From sequence record NZ_CP023785.1: a stretch of 64,000 nt of DNA; one strand, 5' to 3'. The first letter of the stretch is position 1, and the number at the start of each line of letters is the position of its first letter. The notes under the pieces are model-generated. The model was given only the letters and a program-made list of their open reading frames with translations, made no database searches and was not told the origin of the DNA. This document shows, piece after piece, positions 197-62,697 of the stretch. This stretch comes from a plasmid. Both the position numbers and the translations under genes were made by a program.

Positions 197-1874
197 CCTG
201 AATAATTCATACTTTTAATTAAAACCATGTGAAACTGCCTCACGGCAGCTTACAATTACTTTTTCATCTTCACCCGTTAAGTGATGAAAAAAGAACCCCT
301 TTCTGCTATGGTTAAAGTGACTAAACCAACCAAAAGAAAGGAGTTCTTTTCATGACTAGCTTACACAAAAACCAAGTAAAATTCAATTCAAATATCACTA
401 TTTCTCATACAGGTGGTCAATTATCGAGTGATTCGGGTCTCGTCCTAGTGAAAGAGCTGATGAACATCTTTGGTTTTTCTGAACTGGCTAAGCAACACAT
501 TCACATTGAAGACAAACGAGCGTATTTTACTCATGACAACTTATCCATACTTGAGCAGTTCATTATGCAATTAATTGCTGGTTACTCAGCTGATTCTGCA
601 GCTAATCTCCTGAGACAAGATCCTGTGTTTAAAGCTGTTTTAGATAGGAAAGAACTCGCTTCTCAATCTTCACTTTCCCGATTTTTAGATCGACTATCTG
701 AGGAGAATATCCATGAACTTCAAGCTTTGAACCAAGAACTTATCGATAAAGCACGCCTCATCCGTAATGATACGGAATTAATCATTGATTTAGATTCGAC
801 CCATTCAGATACATTTGGTCACCAAGAACAAACGAATTATAATACACACTACCAAACCTATGGTTACCATCCATTGGTAGCTTTTGACGGATTGACTGGT
901 GACTTCTTAAAAGCTGAACTACGTTCAGGAAATCAATATACATCAAAAGGCGTAAAGGAGTTTCTCACACCTTTATTAGAGCACTATAATCACTCTCTAC
1001 CAAACACTGACATCTTGGTTCGTGGAGACAGCGGGTTCGCTACACCTGGTGTGTATGATTCGTGTGAATCAAAAAAGAGTCATTATGTTATTCGACTGAA
1101 GAATAATCGTAGACTAGGTCAAATAGCTGAGAAATCAGTACTTTATGGCGATAATCAAAAGTGGGAAGAACGAGAAGTTCAGTACTTCTCGACCACTTAT
1201 CAAGCACAATCCTGGTCACAAAGTCGTCGCGTGTGTATACGCTCAACACGTGAAGCGGGCGAACTACTCTTTCGACATGAATTTATCGTGACGAATCTAT
1301 CAGAAAATGTTTCTCCTGATACCATCTTTTCTATCTATGCCAAACGTGGCACAATGGAGAACTTCATTAAAGAAGCGAAAGCTGGCTTTTACTTTGACAA
1401 AACAGACAGTCCTCGCTTTTTGGAGAATCATGTCCGAATGATGCTCAGCTTGATAGCTTACAACTTAGTCAACTTCTTAAGAACGATTGGCTTTGAAGAA
1501 GTCCAAAAGGGAATGACCATTCATTCTATTCGATTGAAGTTTCTGAAAGTTGCTGGGAAATTAGTCCAAACGGGTAGACGAGTCTATCTCAAATTATCTA
1601 GTTATCATGTGTATCAGAATGAATTCTACAGGGTCTTTGCTCGCCTGAGGCGAGCCAGTCAATGGATCTAATCCAACAATCTAACGATTTTTTTACTGGG
1701 AAGTTATCCAGGGAGAAGTATGCTCAAAATGCCTTACACCCAAAATTTATTCCTCAATATTTTTGAACAGTGAATGTTTGAAGTAACTTTTTAGTCAAAA
1801 TCAGTTGATAGGGATATTAGTGATACATATTTCAATAAAATGTGCCAAAGAATTAAAGCTATGAATTATTCAGG
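197..1874 (+). mobile_element. IS1380-family insertion sequence (about 1.68 kb) with 15-bp terminal IRs cctgaataattcata and 6-bp flanking direct repeat tactaa
   Basis: IRs at 197-211 and 1860-1874 (inverted); identical tactaa at 191-196 and 1875-1880; single 439-aa DDE ORF inside. Confidence 0.7.
352..1671 (+). CDS. IS1380-family DDE transposase (439 aa)
   Basis: Length and motifs (HYQTYGYHPLVAFD..., DSGFATPGVYD...) are typical of the IS1380/DDE_Tnp_1_3 group. Family assignment is from memory. Confidence 0.7.
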   Translation: MTSLHKNQVKFNSNITISHTGGQLSSDSGLVLVKELMNIFGFSELAKQHIHIEDKRAYFTHDNLSILEQFIMQLIAGYSADSAANLLRQDPVFKAVLDRKELASQSSLSRFLDRLSEENIHELQALNQELIDKARLIRNDTELIIDLDSTHSDTFGHQEQTNYNTHYQTYGYHPLVAFDGLTGDFLKAELRSGNQYTSKGVKEFLTPLLEHYNHSLPNTDILVRGDSGFATPGVYDSCESKKSHYVIRLKNNRRLGQIAEKSVLYGDNQKWEEREVQYFSTTYQAQSWSQSRRVCIRSTREAGELLFRHEFIVTNLSENVSPDTIFSIYAKRGTMENFIKEAKAGFYFDKTDSPRFLENHVRMMLSLIAYNLVNFLRTIGFEEVQKGMTIHSIRLKFLKVAGKLVQTGRRVYLKLSSYHVYQNEFYRVFARLRRASQWI

Positions 1875-1914
1875 TACTAATGTCTTTTATAATAGCTTTT
1901 CATATATTATATAA

Positions 1915-2655
1915 TCAATCTTTATAAGTCCTTTTATAAATTTCTTTTCTACCATTTTCGATAAATTCCTGTTTAATATTTTTAATTCCATAAACAATAG
2001 TTTCAATAGGATAATATTCTTCAACTATATCTTGATATTCTTTTGCTTTCTCAATATCTATATTTCCATACATTCTTAATATATCTTCTCCAAAATTTGT
2101 TCCTATTTCTTCTTCACTATCTTCAAGTAAGTATATAAAATCACAATATTCATCTATAATTCCAGAATCTCCAAAATCAATTATTCCAGTTAATCTATTA
2201 TTGCCATCTAACAATAGATGATTACAACTAAAATCATTATGGCATAAACACTTTTTACCCTCAAAAACTGTTGTTGCATTTAGTCTTTCCATAAAACTTT
2301 CTATATAATCTTTTTCTATATCAGTTAAATCATTATAAATAGTTTCACGCAACAATATATACTCTTCTAATACATTTTGTTTATTATCAATAGTACATTC
2401 ACTAATATCTGTATAATCTAAACCGTGCATTTGTCTTAAAAAACTGGCAATATCTCGTTTTAACAAATTTTGTTCTTCTTCTGACATAGTAGAATAAATT
2501 TCTGGTGTTAAAAAAGTTCCTTTAATTTCTTTATAACCTAGTATAGATAATTCATCACTAATATACGAATATTCAATATTAGGAATTTTTACATTAGTTT
2601 CTAAATTTGTATTTAAAAAATTATATATTGCTTTTTCTTTTGCATAACCTTTTTT
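1915..2655 (-). pseudogene. aacA-aphD: 3' portion (APH(2'') domain) of bifunctional aac(6')-Ie-aph(2'')-Ia, separated from its 5' part by an IS256-family insertion
   Basis: Translation [25 protein letters not shown]...[12 protein letters not shown] matches the C-terminal two thirds of AAC(6')-APH(2'') as I recall it; the gene resumes immediately left of the 8-bp duplication cctttttt. Confidence 0.9.
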
Positions 2656-4807
<2,152 letters not shown>

Positions 4808-4808
4808 T

Positions 4809-6572
4809 TGTCAATATAGTTGTCGTATTTTTATTTTCCACCTATCAAAAAGCAGAACCTCCCTATGGTCGGTTGGCCTCGTTATCCAATAGGGGAAGAA
4901 TAACTTTTTCCCCTATTGGGTGACGAGGGTTATTTGATAATCTTGAAAGATTATGCTCCTGTTAACTTTCTGTTTCTTTTAAAGGATTCAACGCCACCGA
5001 TTGATGTGGAGTCCAATTTCGAACACCTTTTGACCAGCGTTCAGGATGGCGCTTTTTAGCGTCCTCGTAAACCTGCTTTCGTTTCTCTAAAATAGCGAGA
5101 TGTCGTCCTTCATGACACGCTGCAGGAGACACAAATTGAATCCCACTATGCAAATGAGAATCGTTATACCAATCGACAAACTCTTTCGTCCATTTTCGAG
5201 CATCATCTATTGTTTTAAAGCCGTTATTGGGATATTCTGGTCGATATTTTAACGTTCGGAAAGCCGCTTCCGAATAAGGATTGTCATTACTCACTCGTGG
5301 TCTTGAATAAGAACTTTGAATTCCTAATTTTTCGAGTAAGACTTGAAAAGTCGCGGCTTTCATAGGGCTGCCATTATCGGAGTGTAAAACCAACGGCTGT
5401 CCTTGGATACGTTCCTTAAGCACCGTCTGTTTAATAAGTTTTTCGGCATGACGAGCTTCTTCTGATTCCCAAATCTCCCAGCCTACCATTTTACGGCTAA
5501 ATAAATCAATGATGAGATATAACCGGTAAAAGAGTCCTTTTATTGGACCTTTTAGCCAAGTAATATCCCAAGTCCAAACTTCATTTGGCTTCGTCGCAAG
5601 GTGACTTGGCGGTATGCGTTTTTGTGAAACTTGACTTCGGCCACGGTGATGTTGCATATTTTTTTCTCGCAATACACGATAGAAGCTAGACTCTGATGCA
5701 ATATAAATCGAGCAATCCGCAAGTTTTGGTACAATTTGGCTAGGTGGCAAATTCATAAATTCTTTTTTTGAAACGGTTTCTATTATTTTTTCGCGTTCTT
5801 GATCCGTCAGTTTATTTTTGGGTACAGGACGTTTCGCCAAAGGGCGTTGATCATGCGCTATCGTACCTTCACGCGTCCATCGTTCGTAGGTTCGAACGCT
5901 AATATTCAGCTCATTACAGGCATAGGTGAGACGGGCCCCATTGCGATTGGCTTCTTGAATAAGTTCAACAGCTTGTTTGCGATCTGAAGATGAAATCATT
6001 CTTCCTCTTGGTCCCCCCCAAATCGCGTGTGCTTTTTTTCTTAGTAATAAGAGAGCAGCGGCTTCCGCTAATGCTTTTTCCTTATGACGTAATTCTTTCT
6101 CTAATTGACGCGCTTGTTTTTTCTCTTCTTTTAGTTCAGTTGCAAGTTCTCTCGTTCGATTTTCTTCCTGTTCATTCGCAGATAAGCACGTTTTCTTCCA
6201 AGCCTCAATTTGTTCTTTAAATAAGCCCTTCTTTCGGCAATATTCCGCAAGTTCTACTTGGTTCATTGAGAATGATTCCATCACAATTAAAAATTTATCT
6301 TCACTTGACCATTTTTCGACATTTTTTTTCGTTCCGGGTGTAGTATTCCCTTGAATTCTAGCTTTTTTACGCCAAGAACAAAGAGTCGCTTCTGGAATGC
6401 CCAAAGTTTGACTTAATTGGCGAATCCCCCTATTTTCGGGTGGCATCATTTTCTTGATGGCTGTCGCTTTCAGTTCGGTAGAGTAACGTTCATTGTTTTT
6501 ATTTGTCATGGTAATCATCCTCCGTATAGTCTTTATTATAACTTATTATCCTATACGACAACTAGCCTAACA
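4809..6572 (-). mobile_element. IS3-family element (~1.76 kb) with terminal IRs tgt(c/t)a..tagttgtcgtat and a 19-bp internal hairpin 4856-4912
   Basis: Ends were defined by comparing 4809-4840 with the reverse complement of 6548-6572. There is no TSD; on both sides the element abuts truncated genes. Confidence 0.55.
4962..6518 (-). CDS. IS3-family transposase, OrfA-OrfB fused in one 518-aa frame (HTH + leucine zipper + rve DDE core)
   Basis: N-terminal HTH and zipper ELATELKEEKKQARQLEKEL; C-terminal integrase core WTWDITW..HSDNGSPMKA.. Confidence 0.75.
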   Translation of the reverse strand: MITMTNKNNERYSTELKATAIKKMMPPENRGIRQLSQTLGIPEATLCSWRKKARIQGNTTPGTKKNVEKWSSEDKFLIVMESFSMNQVELAEYCRKKGLFKEQIEAWKKTCLSANEQEENRTRELATELKEEKKQARQLEKELRHKEKALAEAAALLLLRKKAHAIWGGPRGRMISSSDRKQAVELIQEANRNGARLTYACNELNISVRTYERWTREGTIAHDQRPLAKRPVPKNKLTDQEREKIIETVSKKEFMNLPPSQIVPKLADCSIYIASESSFYRVLREKNMQHHRGRSQVSQKRIPPSHLATKPNEVWTWDITWLKGPIKGLFYRLYLIIDLFSRKMVGWEIWESEEARHAEKLIKQTVLKERIQGQPLVLHSDNGSPMKAATFQVLLEKLGIQSSYSRPRVSNDNPYSEAAFRTLKYRPEYPNNGFKTIDDARKWTKEFVDWYNDSHLHSGIQFVSPAACHEGRHLAILEKRKQVYEDAKKRHPERWSKGVRNWTPHQSVALNPLKETES

Positions 6573-6833
6573 TAGGGGGTCTTGTAGTGCTTTAGCTTTA
6601 AATTTTGTTTGAAGTATATCCCAAAGTCTAATTTGTGGATCTAAACTCATAAAATCGGATAGCTTTTTAGCGCTGTTTTTATTAAGGTTTCCGACTATCG
6701 TCATAGCGTCAAAGCTCAATTTCGGATTAGAAGTGCACACGAAATGTGCGTCTAACCGGCTATTAGAGTACGCCGGTTTTTTTGTGTAATTTTCCACCAA
6801 ATTTTCTTGCTCATTTTTCGTTATTTTTGCCAT
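6573..6833 (-). pseudogene. N-terminal 87 codons of a pT181-family (Rep_trans) rolling-circle replication initiator, truncated by the IS3 element; contains dso-like IR aaccggcgtactctaatagccggtt (6754-6778)
   Basis: [84 protein letters not shown] is near-colinear with pT181 RepC residues ~20-95 (from memory), and the nick-site motif TACTCT/AATAGCCGGTT sits in the same position as in pT181. Confidence 0.8.
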
Positions 6834-7003
6834 AAAAAGCGACTCCTTAATTTTGTTTAAGAAGTCGCTTTTCCAATTACATTTGCGAATATATATCTTG
6901 AAGAATAATCTTAAATCGTTTAATATCAAGATATACAATTAAGAAACAAACATCGACTGTTTATTTTGCTCACAAACTTTGGTCGGGGAGTGAGCGACTT
7001 CTT
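6834..7003 (-). promoter_or_regulatory. rep leader with pT181-type transcription attenuator: terminator hairpin (6835-6844/6863-6872) that sequesters the SD aaggagtc just 5' of the ATG, plus upstream preemptor aagaagtcgct (6992-7002) complementary to the 5' arm
   Basis: Complementarities read directly from sequence; arrangement corresponds to the countertranscript-driven attenuation described for pT181. Confidence 0.45.
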
Positions 7004-7070
7004 ATTTTTATTTTGTTATTAATATAACACTAACAAAAGACTTGGTCTAATTAGATCAAGTCTTTTTTAG
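6933..7070 (+). ncRNA. candidate antisense copy-control countertranscript (promoter ttgaag-N17-taatat at 6897-6925, ends at terminator 7038-7069)
   Basis: Promoter and terminator read from sequence; orientation opposite to rep leader. Confidence 0.3.
7038..7069. terminator. bidirectional rho-independent terminator aagacttggtct-aatt-agatcaagtctt + TTTT
   Basis: 12-bp stem with one G-U pair, T-run on plus and A-run upstream. Confidence 0.5.
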
Positions 7071-7508
7071 TACCAAAACTTATTACATAATCAAAACTTA
7101 ATTCTCTTTAGATAATTTATATTGCTGGTAAGTATAATAAACTATCAATGATTGCACTACTACTTGTGAAAAAGCTAATGATACTCGAATGATTTTCTTC
7201 GTTTTCTCACTCATTTTACTCAACTCCTTTCGTTGCTTTATTCCAATTTCCTTATTGGTCGGAACCTACAGGGCTTTATGTGTTGTTGAGTTGGTACTTT
7301 CTTGGGATTAATCCCAATTCAAGTCCAACCAACTCGCTAACAAGTTAGCTAACACATAGCCCATTCCAACCAATAAGTTTTCTCGGCATAAAAACGTGTT
7401 ATAATACTATTAGTTGTTTTTTCATAAGGAGTTACCCCCTTATTTGCATTTATTTTGCATTTTAAGGGGGTATTTTGCGTATTTAGCCCTTTTTATATAT
7501 AAATCTAC

Positions 7509-8060
7509 CTAAAGGTCATTAAATACTCTAAAAAACAATGCTATGAGCCACAGAATGATAGCGAAGAATACATAGGGTACTGCATAAAGTATCAACATCA
7601 AATATCGCCATGCACTTTCGTGGTCATCAATAAAACCATTAATAAAGCTATATAAATGTTCAATACCAAAGAAATGACCTATCGGACCTGTCACAAGCAT
7701 TACAAGTACAAAAATAATTAGCACAAAAAATATATTTGTAACGCCTTTTGTCATCACTTTTAGCGCTGTATTCGATTTATCAACCACTTTGTTATGGTCT
7801 TTTATTTTACTTTCTAAGATTTCTTTATACTCTTTTGTTTCTTCTCTCGCTTGTTTCGTCACTTCACGTATTTCGTCTTTAGTATCGCTTAATTCATCTT
7901 GAATAGCTTGTTGAAAATCTAATTTCAAATTATCTTCATCAAGTCGTTTAATATAGTGCTTTGCAGTTGTTTCAAAGTTTAATCTTGCATGCTTAGTCTT
8001 TTCTTCAAAAACATCTAACTTATTATTAAAGTTCGAGGTCGAAGCCTCTAGTCTTTTCAT
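7509..8060 (-). CDS. hypothetical protein, coiled-coil N-terminus and two C-terminal TM helices (183 aa)
   Basis: ORF with hydrophobic C-terminal segments; followed by hairpin 7440-7480. Confidence 0.45.
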   Translation of the reverse strand: MKRLEASTSNFNNKLDVFEEKTKHARLNFETTAKHYIKRLDEDNLKLDFQQAIQDELSDTKDEIREVTKQAREETKEYKEILESKIKDHNKVVDKSNTALKVMTKGVTNIFFVLIIFVLVMLVTGPIGHFFGIEHLYSFINGFIDDHESAWRYLMLILYAVPYVFFAIILWLIALFFRVFNDL

Positions 8061-8100
8061 GAGTATGTTTGTTCTCTCGTTCCTGTCTTGCTCGCTCTTC

Positions 8101-8531
8101 GGTTCTGTTGCAAAGTTTTAAATAAAGAATAAAATCCCTTACGGTATCTATGATTTAAGCTGGGATTCCCAATAATACCTTGATTTCAGTACAGACCGAA
8201 AACCCGAAGAGAGTGCCTTCTTTCCGGGTTTTCTTATATAATCCTCGAATGGCTTCCATGCCTTTAATCGTGGTAGAGGCAGTGCGTAAACTTCGATAGA
8301 ATTTATTGCGTCTCTTTACTGGACGATGGTCTTGTTCAATCAAATTATTCAGGTATTTAATGGTACGATGTTCTGTCCCTTGATAAAAGCCGTATTCTTT
8401 TAGTTTCTTAAAGGCACTTGTAATAGAGGGGGCTTTATCTGTGACTACAACCTTCGGTTCATCAAACTGCTTCACTAACCGCTTAAGAAAAGCATAGGCT
8501 GCTTGTGTGTCCCGTTTTTTACGTAACCAAA
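8101..8531 (-). mobile_element. IS1216 3' fragment (IR + C-terminal ~120 codons), truncated by insertion of a second IS6 element
   Basis: IR at 8101-8119; translation WLRKKRDTQAAYAFLKRLVKQFDEPKVVV... identical to intact copies. Confidence 0.85.
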
Positions 8532-9339
8532 GGTTCTGTTGCAAAGTTTTCCAAAAAATCTATTTTAGTGTAAAATTGAGAAAAAAGACAGAGAGGACAG
8601 AGTAATGAATCATTTTAAAGGCAAACAATTCAAAAAAGACGTCATTATTGTCGCTGTTGGTTACTACCTGCGTTACAATCTAAGCTATCGTGAAGTTCAG
8701 GAATTGTTATATGATCGTGGAATAAATGTTTGTCATACTACGATTTATCGTTGGGTGCAAGAGTACAGCAAAGTCCTCTATTATCTTTGGAAGAAGAAAA
8801 ATAGACAATCCTTCTATTCATGGAAAATGGACGAAACCTATATCAAAATTAAGGGACGTTGGCATTATCTTTATCGTGCAATTGATGCGGACGGCTTAAC
8901 CTTAGATATCTGGTTACGAAAGAAACGGGATACGCAAGCAGCCTATGCTTTCTTAAAACGACTCCATAAACAGTTTGGTGAGCCGAAAGCAATTGTGACC
9001 GATAAAGCACCTTCTCTTGGCTCCGCCTTTAGAAAGTTACAGAGTGTGGGTTTATATACTAAGACAGAGCACCGAACTGTGAAGTATCTTAACAATTTAA
9101 TAGAACAAGACCATCGACCTATTAAACGACGAAATAAATTTTATCAAAGTCTCCGTACAGCCTCTTCCACGATTAAGGGCATGGAGACCATTCGAGGAAT
9201 ATATAAAAAGAACCGAAGAAATGGAACGCTCTTCGGCTTTTCGGTGTCTACTGAAATCAAGGTATTAATGGGAATAACAGCCTAAGATATTTGGAGTTCA
9301 GAGAGGGCGCGTTTGATTTTCAAACTTCGCAACAGAACC
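8532..9339 (+). mobile_element. IS6-family element, variant related to but distinct from IS1216 (IRs ggttctgttgcaaagttt / aaacttcgcaacagaacc)
   Basis: IRs read directly; tnp ~80% identical at protein level to IS1216 copies. Confidence 0.85.
8605..9285 (+). CDS. IS6-family transposase (226 aa, variant)
   Basis: MNHFKGKQFKKDVIIVAVGYYLRYNLSYREVQELLYDRGINVCHTTIYRW... Confidence 0.9.
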   Translation: MNHFKGKQFKKDVIIVAVGYYLRYNLSYREVQELLYDRGINVCHTTIYRWVQEYSKVLYYLWKKKNRQSFYSWKMDETYIKIKGRWHYLYRAIDADGLTLDIWLRKKRDTQAAYAFLKRLHKQFGEPKAIVTDKAPSLGSAFRKLQSVGLYTKTEHRTVKYLNNLIEQDHRPIKRRNKFYQSLRTASSTIKGMETIRGIYKKNRRNGTLFGFSVSTEIKVLMGITA

Positions 9340-16375: not shown

Positions 16376-18572
16376 CAAATTTTGTTCCTCCTCAAAGAAA
16401 AAGAGACTTTTGGAAAGAATTTCCAGAGTTCACGTAACCCTAAAAATTCATATCCAAAAATCTCTAGCTTGAAGAAACCTAAAAATATTCGTATAATGAA
16501 CCTGAGTTACGGAGCTAGGTGAAGTAGTTTCCGTAAATAGTCGAGAGTGTTAGCGCACTGCTCGGCTTTTATTTTGCTCTTTTTTCTCGTTTTCTTTGAT
16601 TATAGCACTCCTCCTAAAAAAATAAAAAGACCTCAGGGAATTTCATTCCCCGAACCCCTTGAGCCTCCTCCTGCCGAAATGGAAAGGGCGCACCCGCTGT
16701 TTATTTCATTCAGCTATCGGCTTTCACAATCTAACACGATCGTTCCGCTACCAGTCGCCTTACAGGCTCCATTTTCGCTCCTCTAACGTGTTTTAACGAT
16801 TGTGCCGATAACTAAACGAAATAAACGCTAAAACCGCTCAGAACGCAAAATATGCCATTTTAGAGCTATTGTAGAAAATGTAGTTTGAAATGCAATTTTC
16901 TTCTTTCAGCTTTTTATTTCCCACTTGTAAATCTGCTAATTATTTTCTACCAGACAAACCATTGATTTTTTGGCTATCAGTTAACTCACGATTATTATGA
17001 GAAATGCTTGTATTCTTTGTTCCCTTTTTGAACGAAATACTAAACCCTAAGGTGAACCCCTCCTTCGCGCTGTCGCTAATAAAAAGAGTGTAAACCTTTC
17101 TGTTACTCTTTGACAAAGAGTAACATTTTCCTAATTGTGACATGGCTGTCACAATTCCAAACGCTCTCCGAGGGTTTTCGCTGTCACAAGTGACAACGAA
17201 AAAAGGAGCCGAAAGCGTGTCACGCTCTCAACTCCTTTTACGCTTTATTTTGCTTCACGCAAAATAATCGCTTATCTTAAACATTGACGTAAATTTACTC
17301 TCACTTATCTGACTTTTTTACTCGGTATCACTCCGAGTAAGCCGTCATATTCATTGGGATAATCTCGTCTGCTTCGCTCTAATTTTCCAGAGTGAGGGGT
17401 AACTCCTTCCCCCGAATTACCCCAAAGAGTGACACTGGGATATCCCTAAATTTATTATAAAAAGCCAAGTCTCTTTGCGCAACTGTTTTATCCAAGTCGG
17501 CATTTGCGGATTCGTTAGCGTTTTTTCGCTCTTGCTGCAAACGCACGACCCACCATGCCGACTTGTGCTGAAAATAAAAAAGTGGACAAAAATTCATCCA
17601 CTCATTCTTCCGTCACGTCCAACCCCAAAAGCCACGTATCCAATTCTTTTTTCAAAACATCTGCCGATTCCGAAAATGTCTCTCGTAAATGATTAACTAA
17701 CTCATCACTTTGGCTTTCTTTTTTCAACAAATTTCGATATTTATATTTTGTATGACGAGCCAAGCCAGCCCATAAATTTTGATCTGAAATCAATCCTGCA
17801 ATCATAATTCTATCAGTATGCTTTGTATCAGTCGGCAAAAAATGAGGACTTGCGAAACTGTCTAAACTTTCATGAACCATCGCATACCAATCAGTAGCTT
17901 TTCCACGCCGTAACTGCAATTCCAGTCGCCACCAAGTTTTTATTTCCGGTGGTACAATTTTCCGTTTGGTTTCTTGTTCCAATTTTTTGTTGTACATCCT
18001 TATTTGTCGCTCACTGGCACGACTACCCCAATATGCCGTTTCCAGCTTCCCAGACCGCCCATAGATTGGTTTGAATGAAACAGGGTCAACCACACGATAT
18101 TGCGTAATAAAATCATCAGGCACATCGATAATGTCGCAAGCAATATCAGCACGTGAGAAATGTGGTTCTAAAAATAAATCATGGATAAAGTTCTTCATCG
18201 AACCCGCCAAAAATTGGCTAATTTTATTTGGGTTAAAGTCAATTCGCCCTTGCCCTTCTTGATATTTCAAAATTTCAATGTAAGCAATATTCTCATCATG
18301 CTTATCCACAATTTGCCAACCATTTAGACCAACAGATTTAACATAACCATTATTTTCATTCAGTCGCATTAACTGTTCAAAGTCTAAAATCAATACATCA
18401 TTTTGCGTGTGATAATAAATATTCTCTTTGAGTTTTCCAACAATGGTAATTCGGTCAATTGACCACTGTATTTTAAGGGGGGTGGTCAAAGTTTGCACAC
18501 TTAACCGCCTGTTAGATAGGGCTGTTAAATTTTCCCACTCATTTATGATCGTGCCACGTTTACTCAAATTTT
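16376..18572 (-). other. remnant of a small pT181-family rolling-circle plasmid trapped between two directly repeated IS1216 copies (rep gene plus ~1.2 kb of downstream non-coding sequence rich in palindromes)
   Basis: Rep_trans ORF 17602-18572; palindromes tgtgacatggctgtcaca (17126-17143), ctgtcacaagtgacaac (17172-17188), ttactcggtatcactccgagtaa (17319-17341). Confidence 0.5.
17602..18572 (-). pseudogene. pT181-family Rep_trans replication initiator, 5' end (first ~20-30 codons, promoter and leader) replaced by IS1216
   Basis: RIDFNPNK, ETAYWGSRASERQIRMYNKK, TWWRLELQLRRG, RHTKYKYRNLLKKE blocks parallel pT181 RepC; dso-like 24-mer at 18492-18516; ORF runs into the IS1216 IR. Confidence 0.7.
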
Positions 18573-19381
18573 GGTTCTGTTGCAAAGTTTTAAATCTACT
18601 ATCAAATAAGATAGAATAATAGAAAAAGATAGCAGGAGGAATAACGATGAATCATTTTAAAGGAAAGCAATTTCAGCAGGATGTGATTATTGTAGCCGTG
18701 GGCTACTATCTTCGTTATAACCTTAGCTATCGTGAAGTTCAAGAAATCTTATATGATCGTGACATTAACGTTTCTCATACGACGATTTATCGTTGGGTGC
18801 AAGAATATGGCAAACTACTCTATCAAATTTGGAAAAAGAAAAATAAAAAATCCTTTTATTCATGGAAAATGGATGAAACGTACATCAAAATTAAAGGAAA
18901 ATGGCATTATTTGTATCGAGCCATCGATGCAGATGGTTTAACCTTGGATATTTGGTTACGTAAAAAACGGGACACACAAGCAGCCTATGCTTTTCTTAAG
19001 CGGTTAGTGAAGCAGTTTGATGAACCGAAGGTTGTAGTCACAGATAAAGCCCCCTCTATTACAAGTGCCTTTAAGAAACTAAAAGAATACGGCTTTTATC
19101 AAGGGACAGAACATCGTACCATTAAATACCTGAATAATTTGATTGAACAAGACCATCGTCCAGTAAAGAGACGCAATAAATTCTATCGAAGTTTACGCAC
19201 TGCCTCTACCACGATTAAAGGCATGGAAGCCATTCGAGGATTATATAAGAAAACCCGAAAAGAAGGCACTCTCTTCGGGTTTTCGGTCTGTACTGAAATC
19301 AAGGTATTATTGGGAATCCCAGCTTAAATCATAGATACCGTAAGGGATTTTATTCTTTATTTAAAACTTTGCAACAGAACC
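18573..19381 (+). mobile_element. IS1216, intact
   Basis: IRs at both ends. Confidence 0.95.
18647..19327 (+). CDS. IS1216 transposase
   Basis: identical to 15641-16321. Confidence 0.95.
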   Translation: MNHFKGKQFQQDVIIVAVGYYLRYNLSYREVQEILYDRDINVSHTTIYRWVQEYGKLLYQIWKKKNKKSFYSWKMDETYIKIKGKWHYLYRAIDADGLTLDIWLRKKRDTQAAYAFLKRLVKQFDEPKVVVTDKAPSITSAFKKLKEYGFYQGTEHRTIKYLNNLIEQDHRPVKRRNKFYRSLRTASTTIKGMEAIRGLYKKTRKEGTLFGFSVCTEIKVLLGIPA

Positions 19382-62206: not shown

Positions 62207-62493
62207 CCTATAGAGGATGAGTGACTTCTGCCTAATTACGTTAAAAAATATTGAAAGTAACTCTATGTAGCAAAAAATATCTAGAATTTCATTTCCTCAA
62301 AACTGATCGATATTGTATCTAAAAATATATACTACCTAAAATAGGTAGTATATATTAAAATATGTGCTTTTGTTAGAAAAATCAATACATAAATTATCAT
62401 ATCTGTATATGTCATTTAGGTATTTCAGTTATGTTATAATAGTTTTGCTGTCTGCTACCCCGGCCTAATCTGGCAAGGGGAGGAGGAGATATA

Positions 62494-62613
62494 ATGAAAT
62501 ACCTTTTTGATTTTGTTTTTGCAATCAAGCCACTTGCAGATGTAGTGTGCAGTTACCTCTGCAAATGGCTTGATTGCAAAATTGCCAAAAAAGACAGTAA
62601 GCCTACCCGTTAA
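62494..62613 (+). CDS. Fst/Ldr-like type I toxin peptide (39 aa: MKYLFDFVFAIKPLADVVCSYLCKWLDCKIAKKDSKPTR)
   Basis: RBS ggaggagg 7 nt upstream, extended -10 tgttataat at 62432-62440, hydrophobic helix with Pro and ..Y..WL.. followed by charged tail; bidirectional terminator downstream. Confidence 0.55.
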   Translation: MKYLFDFVFAIKPLADVVCSYLCKWLDCKIAKKDSKPTR

Positions 62614-62632
62614 TTCTATAATATAGAAACGT

Positions 62633-62697
62633 AAAAAAAACCCCATCAGCCTGCACGCTGATGGGGTTTGGTGATATAATGAAATACCTCTTTGTTA
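62633..62697 (-). ncRNA. candidate antitoxin RNA (RNA II-like, ~65 nt) from promoter ttgcat-N16-tacaat (62704-62731, minus strand) to the shared terminator; contains the reverse complement of the direct repeat gatataatgaaatacct and is therefore complementary to the toxin translation-initiation region
   Basis: direct repeat at 62488-62504 and 62673-62689 either side of terminator; promoter read from sequence. Confidence 0.45.
62641..62664. terminator. bidirectional terminator ccccatcagc-ctgcac-gctgatgggg flanked by A8 and T-rich tracts
   Basis: 10-bp GC-rich perfect stem. Confidence 0.65.

Follow-up and report, generated by a model that had tools for sequence, protein, structure and literature searches.

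A 64,000-nucleotide (nt) stretch of plasmid record NZ_CP023785.1, here called the window, carries on its minus strand a 1521-bp segment (the relic) that we regard as very probably the replication-dead remnant of a staphylococcal rolling-circle plasmid of the pT181 (Rep_trans) family, of the chloramphenicol-resistance type exemplified by pC223 and SAP084A. Read from 8100 to 6580, the segment is 100.000% identical to the Staphylococcus aureus plasmid SAP084A (NC_013306.1), with 0 mismatches and 0 gaps over its 1521 bp, and corresponds to SAP084A positions 3823-4595 plus 1-748. SAP084A is 4595 bp long and contains rep (Rep_trans), cat (type A-8), mobC, mobA, and a DUF334 mobB-like gene. Two further intact 4.6-kb staphylococcal plasmids match the relic at 91.7-91.8% identity. 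The evidence consists of observed sequence identity, domain content, an RNA-family match, conserved base pairings, boundaries, and prevalence, and no contradiction of the remnant reading was found in it.

The relic retains the final 75 nt of mobA, a complete mobB-like gene, an ssoA/palA lagging-strand origin, an open reading frame (ORF) of 38 amino acids (aa), the rep control region, and rep nt 1-254, in a gene order (mobA-mobB-ssoA-leader-rep) that is common to the relic and its intact relatives. The mobB-like protein is WP_002303113.1 in SAP084A and in Enterococcus faecium records alike, and its gene occupies the same place after mobA in pS194-like plasmids. Comparison of the window with SAP084A recovered none of the remaining SAP084A sequence elsewhere in the window. 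A first-pass annotation, made from the letters and a list of ORFs, had described a truncated pT181-family rep gene with an attenuator leader, a countertranscript gene, and a double-strand origin (dso) at this site. That description is borne out by the identity to SAP084A, the resemblance to pT181 RepC, and an Rfam match, and all of its motifs are confirmed on the minus strand, at the positions it gave or close to them.

The rep fragment and its origin

The truncated gene (rep') starts with an ATG at 6833 and runs as an ORF of 88 codons to 6567. Homology to every intact rep relative stops at window position 6580, that is, at codon 84 plus 2 nt, and the last four codons before the stop (DPLC*) are junction or insertion sequence (IS) DNA. 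Codon 87, which the first-pass annotation gave as the point of truncation, is too far, because the count included these junction-derived codons. The rep' product matches Pfam RepD-like_N (PF22477; 1.1e-15) over profile positions 1-43 of 87 only and is 77% identical to pT181 RepC over residues 19-87. Pfam finds no catalytic Rep_trans domain (PF02486) in it, while the intact SAP084A Rep has both domains. An NCBIfam search gave no match for rep', for the 38-aa ORF, or for the second Rep_trans gene of the window described below.

The dso lies inside the rep coding region, which is the rule for the pT181 family (PMC5703833). Its inverted repeat IR-II falls within rep codons 19-27. The 6 family members aligned have it at this position too, and it is conserved across the family, whereas IR-III is variable, as expected of a specificity element. 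Both repeats match SAP084A exactly; the IR-III of the relic is that of SAP084A and pC223, with arms as in pT181, and the other aligned members differ. What is missing is an intact initiator with its active-site tyrosine. Because only 84 codons remain and PF02486 is absent, the relic is the remnant of a family member rather than a functional member, and in the absence of a catalytic Rep domain it is unable to initiate replication. A functional second replicon was considered and rejected, since the catalytic domain is missing and the rest of the window holds no cognate rep.

Being identical to that of a live plasmid, the relic dso would likely be nickable if a cognate Rep were supplied, and it had been suggested in the first-pass annotation that a residual dso next to an active Rep of a related plasmid could be a hot spot for nicking-driven recombination; rolling-circle run-off was weighed along with it. 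IR-II and IR-III are indeed complete and the same as in a functional origin, and a second Rep_trans gene is present within the window (17602-18572). However, this second Rep is only ~31% identical, its dso-like sequence differs, with no match to the nick 15-mer within 3 mismatches, and its 5' end and promoter have been replaced by an IS1216 end; as a dso partner it was rejected on identity, nick region, and loss of the 5' end. Recognition of the origin by Reps of this family is specific, acting through IR-III and a 6-aa determinant (PMC5703833). In PLSDB, an intact rep at >=99% identity occurs in SAP084A only and in no enterococcal record, the nearest intact enterococcal Rep_trans genes being 81-83% identical. 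The relic junctions are, moreover, invariant across ~100 records. A recombination hot spot at this dso is, on these grounds, extremely unlikely, and the suggestion is not upheld.

The second Rep_trans gene is divergent. It extends over 17602-18592 on the minus strand, matches Pfam PF02486 (2.6e-8), and is ~31% identical to pT181-family Reps. An IS1216 terminal repeat (18573-18592) replaces its 5' end, the apparent TTG start lies inside that repeat, and expression could depend on an outward IS promoter. The gene keeps a dso-like sequence, CTATCTAACAGGCGGTT, in codons ~21-28.

Table 1. Features of the relic and of the elements at its edges (window positions; SD, Shine-Dalgarno sequence; ctRNA, countertranscript RNA; RSB, recombination site B)
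Feature	Position	Strand	Details	Basis
Whole relic, pC223/SAP084A-type fragment	6580..8100	-	1521 bp	match to NC_013306.1
mobA tail	8026-8100	-	last 75 nt	identity to SAP084A
mobB-like gene (DUF334), intact	7509..8060	-	183 aa	weak Pfam DUF334 match; position after mobA
ssoA/palA lagging-strand origin	~7233..7397	-	~165 nt	RSB, CS-6, single-stranded DNA fold
Hydrophobic ORF with SD	7101..7214	-	38 aa, MSEKTKKIIRVSLAFSQVVVQSLIVYYTYQQYKLSKEN; between ssoA and rep promoter	conservation
Conserved hairpin between A- and T-runs, distal antisense terminator	7035..7066	+	overlaps rep -35 on minus strand	folded
Predicted rep mRNA promoter	7021..7049	-	TAGACC, N17, TG-extended -10 TGTTATATT	promoter scan; start putative
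ctRNA (RNAI-like)	6933..7017	+	~85 nt; kissing hairpin 6968-6995	Rfam RF00242
Preemptor	6993..7003	-	11 nt, AAGAAGTCGCT	exact complement of attenuator 5' arm 6859-6869
Antisense promoter	6898..6926	+	TTGAAG (6898-6903), N17, TAATAT (6921-6926)	consensus match
Attenuator, terminator hairpin and U-run	6834..6872	-	SD AAGGAG (6843-6848) in 3' arm	17 bp, -22.1 kcal/mol
Truncated rep ORF (rep')	6567..6833	-	84 Rep codons + 2 nt (6833-6580), then DPLC-stop from junction DNA	Pfam, RepC alignment
dso core	6735-6778	-	IR-II with nick motif and IR-III Rep-binding repeat	family alignment, motif location
dso IR-II	6754-6778	-	AACCGGCGTACTCTAATAGCCGGTT; nick motif TACTCT/AATAGCC at 6758-6770
dso IR-III	6735-6749	-	GCACATTTCGTGTGC (GCACA-TTTCG-TGTGC)	motif location
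IS3-family element (orfA/orfB)	4809..6572	-	inverted repeats 16/20, TG...CA	Pfam rve + HTH_Tnp_1
Partial IS1216 copy, upstream relic boundary	8101..8544	-	terminal inverted repeat GGTTCTGTTGCAAAGTTTTA at 8101-8120

Copy-control circuit and lagging-strand origin

Upstream of rep', the relic carries the parts of a pT181-type attenuation circuit (Table 1). The SD-sequestering hairpin before the ATG, the 11-nt preemptor, and the antisense promoter that the first-pass annotation had named were all located and folded, and the attenuator ends 1 nt before the ATG. Preemptor pairing and terminator pairing exclude each other, and the ctRNA spans the preemptor and is complementary to the leader in this region. 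The Rfam family ctRNA_pT181 (RF00242) is matched over the full model (1-94), on the strand opposite rep, with 59.5 bits against a gathering score of 56. The same family is matched above the gathering score at the homologous site in six intact plasmids, including pT181 (105.6) and pC223 (83).

Conservation of these pairings was assessed in an alignment of 12 leaders, comprising the relic, pT181, pTZ4, and pS194-like and other str, cat, lnu, and fosB plasmids. Of the alignment cells, 97.0% keep the helix between preemptor and 5' arm paired and 92.4% keep the terminator helix paired; slid-register controls reach 37-66%. Covariation amounts to a single compensatory pair, AU to GC in pT181, and is sparse because the leader is so highly conserved; support for the leader comes from conserved pairing and identity to a live plasmid, not from covariation statistics. 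The TG-extended -10 that we take as the rep promoter, TAGTGTTATATT, is invariant in all 12 leaders, as is the -10 of the antisense promoter, of which the -35 is conserved; consensus matches together with this family invariance are what suggest the two promoters. Similarity to Rep_trans proteins and conservation of the leader complementarities in related replicons, on which the earlier description had staked its case, are thus both observed.

Folding of the alternative leader structures gives a consistent picture. In the minimum-free-energy (MFE) structure of the nascent leader, the 5' arm pairs with the preemptor at 11/11 positions in the relic, 14/14 in pT181, and 14/14 in another member, and in the MFE structure of the full leader the terminator forms, favoured by ~5 kcal/mol in 3/3 replicons tested. 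In silico, the relic leader is predicted to switch exactly as that of pT181 does. A generic promoter and terminator scan reported no terminators, its 3-8 nt loop limit excluding the attenuator loop drawn by the core arms; the attenuator and leader structures were assessed by explicit folding.

Two terminators are nested on the antisense strand. The first (hairpin 6968-6995 and U-run to 7017) predicts an RNA of ~85 nt, and the second (7035-7066 and U-run), the hairpin of which is conserved in 12/12 family leaders, predicts one of ~140 nt. A countertranscript of ~140 nt had been proposed; the distal terminator that this implies is present, but by analogy and from the Rfam match the major species is probably ~85 nt, with the ~140-nt species as its read-through form.

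How the module would work is argued from identity with an intact plasmid and by analogy with pT181, of which the attenuation mechanism and the Rep specificity have been reviewed (PMC5703833). The rep leader would start from the promoter at ~7021-7049, and the convergent antisense promoter would produce the ~85-nt ctRNA. Pairing of the ctRNA with the leader would sequester the preemptor, so that the SD-containing terminator forms and transcription stops; without ctRNA, the preemptor would pair with the terminator 5' arm and transcription would read through. In the relic, the sole product of such read-through would be a stub of 88 aa without the catalytic Rep_trans domain. By the same analogy the relic probably still transcribes both the ctRNA and the attenuated leader, and ctRNA synthesis from it is likely constitutive.

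Several observations weigh against this account of the relic. The control region that it shares with SAP084A is an atypical variant of the family: compared with pC223, the main ctRNA hairpin has lost 13 nt at its base and 11-12 nt are inserted before the attenuator, and the Rep N-terminus of the relic and SAP084A also differs from that of pC223. Preemptor pairing is 11 bp in the relic and SAP084A versus 14 bp in pT181. The Rfam score barely clears its gathering score, compared with the values for pC223 and pT181, and is marginal because of the 13-nt deletion and other variations of the control region. The strength of regulation by this leader may therefore differ from that in pT181. At the rep' edge, 7 nt of filler at the junction with the IS3-family element are unexplained, and a target duplication is absent.

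Farther upstream, the relic contains a long imperfect hairpin on the displaced strand that is definitely an ssoA/palA lagging-strand origin and not a leader structure. It holds the RSB (TTTATGCCGAGAAAA, 7378-7392) and CS-6 (TAGCGA, 7334-7339), in the sequence and with the 53-nt spacing reported for pT181/pSSTET1 (PMC6395029). As a single strand the ~165 nt fold with -40.2 kcal/mol (z -9.2). A hairpin of ~90 nt (7263-7352) containing a CS-6-like TAGCGA had been noticed here and read as either a single-strand origin or a leader structure; the CS-6 and the first of these options stand, and the span covers the core only. Taken alone, the ssoA block matches many unrelated 2.4-kb staphylococcal plasmids at 84-92% identity, as expected for a shuffled sso cassette. 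Since staphylococcal ssoA is reported to be host-restricted (PMC5703833), it is probably idle in Enterococcus.

The hydrophobic 38-aa ORF between ssoA and the rep promoter encodes a peptide that is identical in SAP084A and in two further sequences (L002 and L003). It is 79% identical in pTZ4 and pSh-fosB, with 5 synonymous-only versus 8 non-synonymous codons, and 57% identical (partial) in pS194-like plasmids. Homologs obtained with a 41-aa version as query are all annotated "hypothetical protein."

Insertion-sequence edges and spread among enterococci

On its mobA side the relic adjoins an IS1216 terminal inverted repeat exactly at 8101, and the ORF at 8155-8544 is the C-terminus of an IS6-family transposase. 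On the rep' side lies an element labelled "IS3 family transposase" in CP017793, with inverted repeats at 6553-6572 and 4809-4828. The filler CCCCCTA (6573-6579) separates the rep break from the nearer repeat, and a 6-nt filler, AACACC (4803-4808), separates the other repeat from an internal IS1216 fragment, where homology resumes at 4802. We find no target-site duplication at the IS3-family element, the far flank of which is IS1216 and not rep. Neither abutting repeats nor the 3-4 bp duplication that would mark an IS3 insertion as the cause of truncation are seen. The first-pass annotation had the gene cut by this element, and the element does adjoin the break, but these features do not bear out a simple insertion; it is likelier that rep was cut short by a secondary deletion or by recombination than by insertion of the IS3 element.

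In PLSDB the IS3-family element is found in one context only (~102 records), and GTDB representative genomes contain no exact copy of its end. A G7 run at 6013-6019 fuses orfA and orfB into one 518-aa ORF. In NZ_CP017793.1 the run is G6, in a copy that is identical in all other respects and has two coding sequences that overlap. Either the two records differ through the sequencing of a homopolymer, or orfA and orfB are genuinely and constitutively fused at the frameshift site.

The arrangement of this edge bears on a further possibility, namely that the IS3-family transposase, which starts ~57 nt after the rep' stop, is driven or regulated by a co-opted rep promoter and attenuator. rep' and orfA/orfB are indeed co-oriented, and no terminator is predicted from 6567 to 6509. 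This is an argument from geometry alone, however, and a matching orientation has a 50% chance; the single PLSDB context gives no sign of recent transposition, and the attenuator would terminate most transcripts. We consider such co-option the most improbable of the explanations weighed here.

Cointegration mediated by IS1216 is the most likely route by which the staphylococcal plasmid came into an enterococcal one; on one side the relic ends exactly at an IS1216 terminal repeat. The captured plasmid would then have been whittled down, its other edge coming to lie beside the IS3-family element, in what we presume to be the order of the IS events. Around the relic, an IS-dense patch (1875-4469, 4569-4802, and 8101-9285) contains IS256-type elements, partial and complete IS1216/ISS1N copies, and a disrupted aac(6')-Ie-aph(2'')-Ia gene. 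The partial IS1216 3' ends that bracket the relic together with the IS3 block (8098-8331 and 4569-4802) are in direct orientation and 98.7% identical.

The window belongs to a large E. faecium plasmid, and the relic is widespread in enterococci. Region 6400-7600 is present at 100% identity in >70 E. faecium plasmids of 150-290 kb, and ~100 Enterococcus plasmids in PLSDB hold rep nt 1-254 at 100% identity with the same end point. From the sequences compared, this identical truncation appears to be one ancestral event and not the product of a recombination hot spot, because the junctions are invariant across records.

Such constancy, in ~100 plasmids, of an origin and of a ctRNA gene with its promoter that are intact and identical to those of a live plasmid could also be expected of a maintained trans module, either excluding pC223-type plasmids or acting as a regulator that feeds IS3 transposase transcription. 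Given its identity to a live plasmid, the relic would likely exert incompatibility in trans on a cognate plasmid that arrives, its ctRNA inhibiting rep and its dso titrating Rep. Nevertheless, a maintained module of either kind is very unlikely, and the same low probability applies to the specific proposal that the relic is kept as a useful exclusion or incompatibility module protecting the megaplasmid host from pC223-type plasmids. Complete identity and a shared truncation point reflect one recent event spread by descent or transfer and are not evidence of selection. The relic sits in a junkyard of IS1216, IS3, and IS256 elements beside the disrupted aac(6')-aph(2'') gene, and in some records (H45 and H52) the relic is shorter, with ssoA or some of the leader missing. 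The ctRNA dose from a single low-copy gene would also be low, and cognate plasmids are apparently rare, with one intact record in PLSDB. If the relic were such a module, a staphylococcal copy-control RNA would have been domesticated by enterococcal megaplasmids.

Elsewhere in the window, Rfam SpF66_sRNA (RF02442) is matched at 62454-62680 on the plus strand, with 53.3 bits against a gathering score of 42.

Relation to known plasmids

Replication-dead plasmid remnants of this kind are already known; this one comes from a known plasmid, and its control circuit is a textbook one. It is useful for annotation and for tracing history, and it raises no new mechanistic question. In ~100 E. faecium and E. 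faecalis plasmids nothing is annotated over rep', the ctRNA, the dso, and ssoA, and replicon-typing tools could read the relic as a pT181-type replicon. It is also one more documented example of IS1216 moving DNA from Staphylococcus to Enterococcus, complementing pRUM.

In the E. faecium plasmid pRUM, an IS1216-flanked pC223-like segment has been described, along with its capture and IS-mediated trimming (PMC12711152). Here too, IS1216 has captured part of a staphylococcal plasmid of this type. The pRUM segment corresponds to SAP084A 878-3271 (rep 3' end, cat, mobC, and mobA') at 98.6-99.2% identity, does not overlap with the relic, and lacks the dso, ctRNA, and ssoA. The idea that the two are exact complements, as halves of one integration, was rejected given the 129- and 551-bp gaps between them and their differing identity levels.

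The plasmid pC223 (NC_005243.1), prototype of the cat plasmid type, shares its backbone and IR-III with the relic. Its dso region is otherwise as in the relic, except that one G is absent from IR-II. Identity between pC223 and the relic is 94.5%, with 15 gaps; the pC223 ctRNA hairpin is longer and canonical, and there is no insertion before the attenuator. SAP084A and pC223 are 98% identical. Over ssoA, the leader, and the rep 5' region, the deposited pC223 sequence, in which rep is not annotated, is 89.9% identical to SAP084A, with 10 gaps over 507 nt, mostly small indels. These indels are either old sequencing errors or a real variant of the control region.

With pT181 the relic shares the architecture of copy control, that is, RNAI/RNAII attenuation of repC, including the nested antisense terminators at ~85 and ~140 nt. 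DNA identity between the two is ~74%, and the relic differs in having a shorter ctRNA hairpin and no functional Rep downstream. As regards ssoA/palA origins, that of the relic keeps its parental orientation with respect to the dso, but there is no leading-strand replication to feed it. Compared with SAP084A itself, the relic is without rep nt 255-933, which encode the catalytic Rep_trans domain, and without cat, oriT, mobC, and most of mobA. SAP084A is a free small plasmid, whereas the relic is embedded between IS elements in an enterococcal plasmid of >150 kb.

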